The notes: generated from the letters alone by a model not told the origin. A stretch of 32,000 bases of DNA from Candidatus Brocadia sp. (GCA_021650915.1 CP091279.1:1680001-1712000); one strand, 5' to 3'. Positions 27,453 to 29,103 are shown, counted from the stretch's first letter. Numbers and translations: made by a program.

Positions 27453-27527
27453 CATAACGCAGCACAGCCGCAACCAAATTTCCTTTATGAAAGCGGGGAG
27501 ATTGCTTCGGAAAAGGCTCTCGCAATG
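27453..27527. repeat. Left half of a second copy of the 2939-3095 palindromic element, separated from its right half by an IS
   Basis: cataacgcagcacagccgcaaccaaatttcctttatgaaagcggggagattgcttcggaaaaggctctcgcaatg aligns with 2936-3009 at about 80% identity by eye. Confidence 0.75.
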
Positions 27528-27666
27528 GTAATATGAAAAAGCAGCGTCCTTCCAAGGAGGTTAAAAAGCCTTGAATAGGCGATAACCTTTTGTGATATTA
27601 AATATCATAAAGGCTTTAGACCACCAATTAAGGTGGTAAGTCTTTAAACCTTGGAAAGGAGGCTGT

Positions 27667-28677
27667 ATGATAAAGTATATAGGATTGGATGCACATTCGT
27701 CAACATGTACATTCAATGTGACGGATGAAAGAGGGAGGGAAGTAGACAACACTACGATTGAGAGCAATGGCCGGCTTTTGGTGAAGTATGTGAGGGGAGT
27801 GGAGGGTGTTAAGAAACTGACCTTTGAAGAGTGTGAATTAAGCAACTGGCTGTATGAGATATTGAGACCAGAAGTAGATGAGTTGATCGTATGCAATCCA
27901 GTAGCAAACGGAGACTACAAGAAGAAAAAGACGGACAAGATGGATGCCAGGAAGCTGTCGAATCTTTTGCGAGGAGGTTTTCTCGTACCGGTATATCATG
28001 ATGGTTCAAAGAGGGAGAGGTTAAGGAGTTTAATGTCCGGGTATCAGGATTTCATTGAAGAGGGTGTGAGGCTAAAGAACCGATACAAATCCTTATTTCG
28101 GAAAAGTGGGAAGAAAATCAAAGGTGAAGCGTTATATAACGACGAGAGTTTCCTGGAAGGATTAGAGCGAAGAGACTTTCAATTTATTGGCACGCAGATC
28201 TATCAGCTTTTAGAGAAGATGGAAGAAGGCAGGCAGGAATATGTAAAAGAGATCGTTCGATGCAGTAAGGGATTTAAAGAGATAAAATATCTCAAGAGCA
28301 TTCCCGGCATTGGGAGTATCCAGGCGGCGAAGATCGTATCACAGGTAATAGACCCGGAGAGGTTTAGCAGTAAGTACAAATATTACAGCTACTGTGGGTT
28401 GGTGAGGCATAAGAGGATAAGTGATGGGAGGGGATATGGGAGTGAAAAGATTTGGGGAAATCGGATATTAAAATGCGTATACAAGATGGCAGGACATTCG
28501 GTTTTAAAGGGTAAGAGCGGTTTAAGGAACTATTACGATACCTTGCGGTTGAAAGGCATCGGTCATGACAATGCCTATAATGCAGTATGTCGTAAGATAG
28601 CGGCAATATCTTTAAGCGTGTGGAGGAAGAGTGAGAAATATGATGACAGACTGATCACTGGCAATCTAATCAAGTAA
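27667..28677 (+). CDS. IS110-family transposase/recombinase (DEDD RuvC-like N-domain plus Transposase_20-type C-domain)
   Basis: The 336-aa product starts MIKYIGLDAHSSTCTF. Its C-terminal part contains YLKSIPGIGSIQAAKIVSQVIDPERFSS..YCGLV. It has the SD aaggagg. Confidence 0.9.
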   Translation: MIKYIGLDAHSSTCTFNVTDERGREVDNTTIESNGRLLVKYVRGVEGVKKLTFEECELSNWLYEILRPEVDELIVCNPVANGDYKKKKTDKMDARKLSNLLRGGFLVPVYHDGSKRERLRSLMSGYQDFIEEGVRLKNRYKSLFRKSGKKIKGEALYNDESFLEGLERRDFQFIGTQIYQLLEKMEEGRQEYVKEIVRCSKGFKEIKYLKSIPGIGSIQAAKIVSQVIDPERFSSKYKYYSYCGLVRHKRISDGRGYGSEKIWGNRILKCVYKMAGHSVLKGKSGLRNYYDTLRLKGIGHDNAYNAVCRKIAAISLSVWRKSEKYDDRLITGNLIK

Positions 28678-28990
28678 AACAGGGCAAGAGGGCATGAAAG
28701 GCTGGTTCGCACCTGTTTTCTTGAGAGAGGGATGAGATCCACGTGTCATTGACCCAAAGAGGTCCAACGCAATGGTTGATCCGCCCTCGTTTAAATCGAA
28801 AATTACCATGCTCAGCAAAGAGCACCGATAGATGACTGAAAACCGATTGCCGAAGGTATTTCATATTAAGGTAATAGAAAGAGAACGATAATAATCTGTT
28901 TGTCATTCATGCACTCAAGACTTTATGGCTTGATTAGCCTCAGTTAAGCGGAAGGGACGCATGGCAAGAAAACATTTCTTTGGTTTTTTT
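28678..28990 (+). ncRNA. Candidate bridge/seek RNA encoded in the IS110-family right end
   Basis: This 354-nt stretch after the transposase stop carries no credible ORF. It contains gtgtcat (28743-28749), the reverse complement of the right target flank atgacac. It contains cgcaatggt (28768-28776), identical to the left junction at 27521-27529. It contains tttcata..ggtaata (28859-28876), resembling the joined element ends. A T7 run lies at 28984-28990. The extent and strand are inferred. Confidence 0.4.
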
Positions 28991-29032
28991 GTCAACAGGG
29001 ATAATATTTTTTCTTGACATGCTTTTTCATAG

Positions 29033-29103
29033 ATGACACCGGCCATGCACTTTGATGGCACACTGCACGTTGTCATTGCGAGCGAAGCGAAGCAATCTTT
29101 CAC
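29033..29103. repeat. Right half of the interrupted palindromic element
   Basis: atgacaccggccatgcactttgatggcacactgcacgttgtcattgcgagc aligns with 3007-3056 at about 80% identity with a 1-nt indel. It continues as gaagcgaagcaatctttcac. Confidence 0.75.

Follow-up and report, generated by a model that had tools for sequence, protein, structure and literature searches.

We suggest that a 32,000-nt stretch of Candidatus Brocadia sp. DNA (hereafter the window; positions 1680001-1712000 of the single 4.05-Mb contig on which all genome-wide counts below were made) carries an intact IS1111-group element whose recombinase is directed by the element's own downstream bridge/seek RNA, which would specify the insertion site. 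We give this reading a probability of roughly 0.9. In our model, a 336-aa DEDD/serine recombinase would be guided by an RNA encoded directly after its gene. The internal loop of the first module of this RNA would pair with both strands of a 10-11-bp target, CGCAA-TG-ACA(C), and the loop of the second module would pair with the joined ends of the excised circle (...ATAGA-TG-GTAAT...). Recombination across the common TG would then insert the element with no true duplication of the target. The target would be the stem sequence of a hairpin repeat of ~186 bp that is present in ~135 copies and offers two sites per copy. On the circle, and only there, the joined ends would create a consensus promoter driving the transposase gene, and a folded leader lying half over the ribosome-binding site probably restrains translation. 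The anatomy of the element, the count of its copies, the family of its protein and the covariation of guides with flanks are shown below; transcription of the predicted RNA, formation of the circle and the chemistry of the reaction are steps that we infer.

The boundaries of the element can be read directly from the sequence: ...ctcgcaATG at 27519-27527 is followed by an insert of 1505 bp at 27528-29032 and by ATGacaccgg from 29033. The element is thus delimited as follows.

27528-29032, + strand: IS body of 1505 bp, or 1508 bp including one shared ATG, from comparison of the filled with the empty site
27525-27527, + strand: left shared ATG; TG at 27526-27527 is the inferred core and A at 27525 would belong to the left target half-site
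29033-29035, + strand: right shared ATG; A at 29033 would be the right end of the element and TG the core
27532-27543, + strand: left subterminal inverted repeat, 12 bp, 100% complementary to 29020-29031
29020-29031, + strand: right subterminal inverted repeat, 12 bp, perfect partner of 27532-27543

An earlier sequence-only reading of the window had proposed a 1505-bp insert with ATG on both sides and subterminal inverted repeats of 12 bp. The filled and empty sequences confirm the insert, and the inverted repeats are perfect and lie 4 nt (left) and 1 nt (right) inside the element ends. That a filled and an empty site occur within the same 32 kb is likewise borne out, the empty copy reading ctcgcaATGacactgg at 3001-3016. 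Genome-wide, we found 11 copies of the element, all at CTCGCAATG-IS-ATGACA. Because all 11 end and join identically, the differing termini that the earlier reading had named as grounds for its own rejection do not occur. Ten of the copies are full length (1504 or 1505 bp) and one is split by a 1.85-kb DDE-type IS; nine retain the intact 336-codon frame, and none of the 22 columns that vary among the 11 copies falls in a guide segment. In the 4.05-Mb genome, we counted 244 occurrences of the uninterrupted 12-mer CTCGCAATGACA, where 0.5 would be expected. The list of sites that the earlier reading had called for therefore comprises 11 filled and 244 empty sites, all on one chromosome. The predicted target of the recombinase can be written as CGCAATGACA or CGCAATGACAC. 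Outside this genome, the nearest copies of the element are in Brocadia assemblies.

The gene within the element encodes a protein with both domains of the IS110 family, in agreement with the family assignment made from the sequence alone.

27667-28677, + strand: transposase/recombinase gene, 336 aa, with PF01548 and PF02371 above cut-off

PF01548 (DEDD_Tnp_IS110, the N-terminal RuvC-like DEDD domain) scores 43 bits against a cut-off of 29, and PF02371 (Transposase_20, the C-terminal domain) 41 bits against a cut-off of 21.3. The match to the NCBIfam equivalog NF033542 covers the full length (E 1e-37) and reaches 130.1 bits, under the curated cut-off of 140, and the protein is therefore a divergent member of the IS110 family. 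An AlphaFold model of the recombinase (pLDDT 82.5) folds like the IS621 and ISCro4 recombinases, with the best Foldseek matches being IS621 (8wt6/8wt9; E 1.6e-13, 337 columns, full length) and ISCro4 (9t56). Among 14 members of the clade, D8, E54/E55, D90, D93 and S252 are invariant or nearly so, S252 itself being invariant. To judge from motif spacing, and not from a residue-level superposition, S252 is the probable counterpart of S241 of IS621. Relatives at 60-70% identity number in the hundreds and are found in metagenomes and in assemblies of several phyla.

Elements of the IS1111 group are defined by subterminal inverted repeats of 7-17 bp, and further criteria are a longer non-coding region downstream of the gene and a transposase of 330-350 aa. 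Here, the 3' non-coding arm measures 355 nt and the 5' arm 139 nt. The C-terminal motif of IS1111, GL-P----S(t)G, reads GLVRHKRISD in this protein and GLVRH...S(G/A) in relatives; in GLVRHKRIS(D/G/A), the motif spacing and the serine are kept and the proline is replaced by arginine. Three traits, namely subterminal repeats of 12 bp, a long 3' arm and the order of the guides described below, place the element, as far as sequence can tell, in the IS1111 group.

In the 3' arm, two similar modules lie in series, the first of which starts ~45 nt downstream of the stop codon. Sequence, structure in relatives and a covariance model all point to a guide RNA with the following parts.

28723-28848, + strand: predicted bridge RNA / long seekRNA with two modules
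28727-28788, + strand: predicted target-binding module, consisting of base stem, internal loop and inner hairpin
28743-28751, + strand: 5' strand of the target loop, complementary to the target top strand CAATGACAC
28768-28776, + strand: 3' strand of the target loop, in the same sense as left half-site plus core, CGCAATG, followed by GT
28794-28848, + strand: predicted donor-binding module, again with base stem, internal loop and inner hairpin
28802-28809, + strand: 5' strand of the donor loop, complementary to ATGGTAAT, i.e. core plus left end
28828-28836, + strand: 3' strand of the donor loop, in the same sense as right end plus core, ATAGATG, followed by AC

Each of the four loop segments is 8-9 nt long and contains the core; together they match target, donor and both junctions. 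The 5' strand of the target loop pairs with the core and the right half-site (TGACAC) and, in this copy, also with CAA on the left. The GT that closes the 3' strand of the target loop equals the first two bases of the element, and the AC that closes the 3' strand of the donor loop equals the first two bases of the right half-site; both have the form of a handshake-type extension. A fold from RNAalifold that pairs the two guide strands with each other was rejected, as the pair counts favour the internal-loop model. A search of 27400-29150 against Rfam at permissive thresholds gave chance-level matches only, with no bridge RNA or leader family among them. Separately, a small open reading frame after 'GGAAGG..GCATG' near 28950 was dropped because its frame and length are not kept in relatives.

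When this copy is taken alone, the match between loops and DNA is moderately strong at most: in a shuffle test on the longest shared word, 4 of 5000 shuffles reach the observed value. This single-copy test is weak because the donor is A/T-rich, and we substituted for it a comparative test of guides against flanks. The comparison covers 10 elements from genome assemblies and 79 from metagenomes. Because these sequences share ancestry and the larger alignments were made with a model from the same analysis, the figures that follow show covariation and not independent events. In the ten elements, the stems of the guide RNA have 94% of cells paired versus 33-44% when the pairing partners are slid, with three compensatory pairs; conservation is weak in the base stem of the donor module (78% paired). 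Applied to 80 metagenome loci, a covariance model built from these ten elements recovers the RNA directly 3' of the gene in 79.

The guides agree with the flanks of the elements that carry them. Counted over unique guide/flank pairs and over the 5 nt beside the core, agreement on the left is 4.48 of 5 against a shuffled mean of 2.13 (18 distinct guides), and on the right 3.65 of 5 against 2.57 (33 distinct guides); none of 5000 shuffles reaches the observed value on either side. From position -1 to -7, agreement is 95, 95, 90, 90, 78, 7 and 0%, and from +1 to +7 it is 100, 97, 76, 52, 40, 24 and 26%. This sharp fall-off delimits a recognised site of ~5 + 2 + 3-4 bp. Individual relatives follow the same pattern. 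In L017, whose protein is 68% identical, the site is TAAG-ATG-ATTA versus CGCA-ATG-ACAC here, and matching changes are present in both strands of the target loop and in the handshake bases of the donor loop; the 5' strand of the donor loop has changed along with the left end of the element. L017 and L059 both have ATT in the 3' strand of the donor loop and ATT in the flank, and three other relatives have the right half-site ACG together with the loop ACGUCAU.

It could be argued that the recombinase itself reads the hairpin repeat by shape or sequence and that the matches in the 3' arm are by-products, e.g. a captured target-like sequence. All 11 insertions do lie within a structured repeat, and the moderate outcome of the single-copy test would suit such an explanation. 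However, relatives that sit in non-repeat DNA or in other sequences have matching changes in their loops, the guide match stops sharply at 5 nt to the left and 3-4 nt to the right of the core, and experiments on members of IS1111 and IS110 have demonstrated dependence on a seekRNA or bridge RNA. We therefore consider recognition by the protein alone improbable and favor guidance by the RNA, a component that the earlier reading of this insertion did not mention.

The relatives also bear on the identity of the core. In 38 of 40 unique pairs, the base at position -1 (A, C or G) varies in step with the guide, whereas A is constant at the right junction. Relatives with a C or G at the end of the left guide have CTG or GTG at the left junction but ATG, supplied by the right end of the element, at the right one. 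The base in front of TG is thus not the same at both junctions and can be assigned to the half-sites, which leaves the dinucleotide TG as the core that is exchanged, to judge from the relatives. For the core dinucleotide that the earlier reading had wished to see defined, the comparison therefore points to TG. Of the 3-bp ATG reported on both sides, the identity itself stands; as an exchanged core, only its TG behaves as such in relatives. The shared A appears to be coincidental, A being the final base of the left half-site as well as of the element's right end.

A second explanation for the flanking ATGs is that they are a 3-bp target-site duplication from staggered cleavage, as in classical DDE transposition. 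There is one ATG in the empty site and two in the filled site, just as a duplication would leave them. But the enzyme is of the DEDD/serine and not the DDE type, the core is present in all four guide segments, and a duplication cannot yield C or G before TG on the left and A on the right, as seen in relatives. We regard a target-site duplication as very improbable, and exchange of a TG core remains our preferred reading.

The element interrupts a repeat of the host genome, which is also present in the window in uninterrupted form.

27450-27527, + strand: left part of the interrupted host hairpin repeat
29036-29143, + strand: right part of the interrupted repeat, including an intact second target arm at 29071-29082 (minus strand)
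2935-3125, + strand: uninterrupted member of this repeat family; its empty targets lie at 3001-3012 (plus strand) and 3044-3055 (minus strand)

Alignment establishes the homology of the uninterrupted element, which the sequence-only reading had placed at 2939-3095, with the filled flanks: 63 of 75 positions are identical on the left and 58 of 71 on the right, i.e. 82-84%, close to its estimate of about 80%. The empty copy has an additional segment of 24 nt relative to the filled flanks. While the uninterrupted copy is a member of the family as claimed, its extent was given as 157 bp; the repeat unit measures ~186 bp and this copy spans ~2935-3125. The hairpin arms are a 12-mer and its reverse complement, 12 nt each, with starts 43-44 nt apart, and AGATTGCTTCG/CGAAGCAATCT forms an outer stem around the hairpin. 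Both 12-nt arms are exact in 96 repeat units.

Of the 11 IS copies, five occupy one arm and six its partner, the latter being oppositely oriented relative to the repeat. Insertion therefore takes place in a stem arm and not at the dyad, and the proposal that the element had entered the centre of the palindrome does not hold. Because the target is the sequence of a hairpin stem, the site is offered twice per repeat, once on each strand. The broader claim of site-specific insertion into a REP-like palindrome, which is known behavior of IS110/IS1111 elements, is upheld, with 11 of 11 copies at one sequence within the hairpin repeat. The repeat is, however, REP-like in form only: the association with a RAYT (Y1 transposase) that marks REP/REPIN repeats was not found, as only 2 of 12 Y1_Tnp matches lie within 1.5 kb of a site, against an expectation of ~10% of the genome. 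The target 12-mer is enriched in 26 of the 31 related genomes searched, with 1 to 299 copies versus 0-1 for the control. Relatives of the IS from Omnitrophota, Nitrospinota and further Planctomycetota are inserted at that left half-site too.

We give hardly any credence to the idea that the flanking repeat belongs to a larger composite element or is a deletion derivative (MITE) of the IS, with no insertion into a pre-existing repeat. The repeat accompanies the IS at every copy in this genome, but the 244 empty sites are free of any IS end sequence, the roles of the flanks swap between the copies in the two arms, and relatives in other phyla share the left half-site while their right flanks are unrelated. 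Enrichment of the motif as such in the related genomes, at widely differing counts, also argues against it.

All features tested fit an IS1111-group element with a downstream bridge/seek RNA, a mechanism published in 2024, with the NF033542 score as the exception noted and a C-terminal motif that is kept in part. The element is a divergent, uncharacterised member of this group and not a new kind of system. Among the closest parallels are ISEc11, ISPa11, ISKpn4 and ISPst6 (PMC11187229): their DEDD transposases likewise measure 330-350 aa, their inverted repeats are subterminal, and their long non-coding region lies 3' of the gene. IS1111 seekRNAs carry the complement of the target's top strand on the 5' side of that of the bottom strand (Siddiquee et al. 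2024, PMC11187229). The Brocadia guides follow this order, and in both cases the target stretches matched by the two segments overlap. A REP-type repeat is the target of ISPa11 as well (PMC11187229). By contrast to these four elements, the Brocadia protein belongs to a divergent branch found mostly in uncultured anaerobes, scores below the NCBIfam cut-off and has GLVRHKRISD in place of GL-P----SG, and the element, known here from its sequence alone, has a different target and a covarying 5' leader of 126 nt.

Similarity extends to the bridge recombinases IS621 and ISCro4 of the IS110 group (Durrant et al. 2024, PMC11208160; Hiraizumi et al. 2024, PMC11208158), which have the same protein fold and, in common with what is predicted here, a two-loop RNA with a target loop and a donor loop, a dinucleotide core, handshake bases and a promoter rebuilt at the joined ends. 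In IS621, the additional handshake bases pair with DNA of the partner once the strands have been exchanged (PMC11208160, PMC11208158). Read on the opposite strand, the Brocadia guides have the IS621 layout of left guide, right guide and handshake. However, the Brocadia RNA is in the right and not the left end, its guides run in mirrored order with respect to the gene, the predicted core is TG and not CT, and the subterminal repeats are 12 bp and not 2-3 bp.

IS110-family elements inserted in repetitive extragenic palindromes are known from ISPpu9 and ISPpu10 of Pseudomonas putida and from other REP-targeting IS (PMC12288879; Tobes & Pareja 2006, PMC1525189), and minicircles of ISPpu10 form a strong hybrid promoter (PMC12288879). 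The Brocadia element differs from ISPpu9 and ISPpu10 in host phylum and repeat family, and its hairpin offers the target on both strands; a link between the repeat and a REP-associated transposase was not found.

Mechanistic knowledge itself is unchanged by this element, and what is added here are the inferred TG core, the extent of the guide and the covarying leader. With a protein of 336 aa and a guide of ~126 nt, it would be a compact natural bridge-recombinase system, in which the predicted target, donor, core and handshake positions can be read straight from the genome. Its relatives supply at least 18 naturally reprogrammed left guides and therewith a comparative data set for the guide rules of IS1111-type elements, which are less studied than those of IS621. 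The description should also be useful for the annotation of anammox genomes.

The two ends of the element each carry one half of a predicted promoter, as judged by reading the sequence.

29014-29019, + strand: TTGACA, -35 half of the predicted junction promoter
27529-27534, + strand: TAATAT, -10 half of the predicted junction promoter

Joined ends would read TTGACA-17-TAATAT and face the transposase gene, with a 17-nt spacer made up of 13 nt of the right end, ATG and the g at 27528. TTGACA is present in all relatives read, and both hexamers are kept in them. In the integrated state, a comparable promoter for the gene was not seen on the plus strand. Hybrid promoters of this kind are documented for the minicircles of ISPpu10 (Pares-Guillen et al. 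2025, PMC12288879). Twenty public runs contain the locus, all stored as contigs, and four of them were aligned to the region. The circle was not seen because the runs existed as contigs only, and the absence of the back-joint from the four runs accordingly carries no weight for or against excision. Joints that skip 1508 nt have sides of just 21-24 nt and are accounted for by empty repeat copies elsewhere. The ratio of IS to flank depth is ~7-10 in DNA and RNA libraries alike, which corresponds to the copy number and speaks neither for nor against expression.

Upstream of the gene, the mRNA of the transposase is predicted to begin with a structured leader.

27541-27666, + strand: structured 5' leader of the transposase mRNA, a three-hairpin junction with a closing helix

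The 139 nt upstream of the start codon have a minimum free energy of -57.7 kcal/mol (z = -8.1 versus shuffles). In the closing helix, 27548-27557 pairs with 27649-27659, which includes half of the ribosome-binding site. Translational attenuators are known for IS10 and IS200, and the folded leader, with half of the ribosome-binding site buried in its closing helix, probably limits translation in a similar manner. A more tentative idea, which we consider possible but rather doubtful, is that the ~126-nt leader is an undescribed cis-regulatory RNA of the IS1111 branch that couples translation to a signal instead of merely damping it; the recombinase or the bridge RNA could provide such a signal by binding. 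Relatives retain the structure: compensatory changes affect 11 of 29 pairs in the 10 relatives and 25 of 29 in 58 metagenome relatives, and in the latter 92.5% of cells are paired versus 25-51% when the pairing partners are slid.

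The leader 5' of the transposase gene of the 1505-bp IS110-family element (window 27541-27666) has an RNA structure that is strongly conserved and covarying (z = -8.1), with compensatory pairs numbering 25 of 29 among 58 relatives. The closing helix of this fold covers half of the ribosome-binding site, and the leader has no match in Rfam. The interval that separates the transposase stop codon from the predicted guide RNA (window 28678-28722) contains a hairpin, AACAGG...CCTGTT, with a T-run after it. Relatives show this stem-plus-T-run pattern again, in a different sequence. 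The hairpin and T-run could serve as a terminator, or as a site at which processing defines the guide RNA's 5' end.

The tip of the element's right end, TTGACATGC (window 29014-29022), has an inverted and nearly identical counterpart in GCATGGCAA (window 28959-28967). The two near-copies enclose a small hairpin, and the same arrangement is found in all relatives read. These inverted near-copies may form one more structure within this end of the element, or may serve as a binding site.

The C-terminal half of the transposase (window 27667-28677) matches the NCBIfam model for TIGR-Tas RNA-guided endonucleases with an E-value of 8.8e-16, which is below the cut-off of the model, and it also matches solved TasR/TasH structures. 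IS110 recombinases and TIGR-Tas proteins are related according to published work, and the matches reported here fit with this kinship.

The copies of the element in this genome are not all identical. They fall into two haplotypes, which differ just 3' of the guide RNA (28864-28883 in window numbering). In the copy at G000:C1:597386-598890, a 1-nt insertion at position 397 of the element disrupts the transposase reading frame beyond codon 111. Another copy, L027, is itself interrupted:

G000:C1:3812800-3816400, copy L027, with a 1.85-kb element inserted at codons 3-5

The interrupting element has terminal inverted repeats, encodes a 419-aa DDE_Tnp_1 transposase and is accompanied by a 7-bp duplication (TATATAG).

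In the window, the second arm of the occupied host hairpin is still a perfect target (29071-29082, minus strand) and lies 36 bp beyond the element's right end; no repeat with the element in both arms was seen in the genome. The range of the repeat family extends far beyond this genome. Both the target motif and the hairpin around it, GATTGCTTCG...CTCGCAATGAC, are found throughout the order, 26 of the 31 related genomes searched having them, and both also adjoin related IS copies in Omnitrophota, Nitrospinota and other Planctomycetota (loci L016, L018, L020, L022 and L023).
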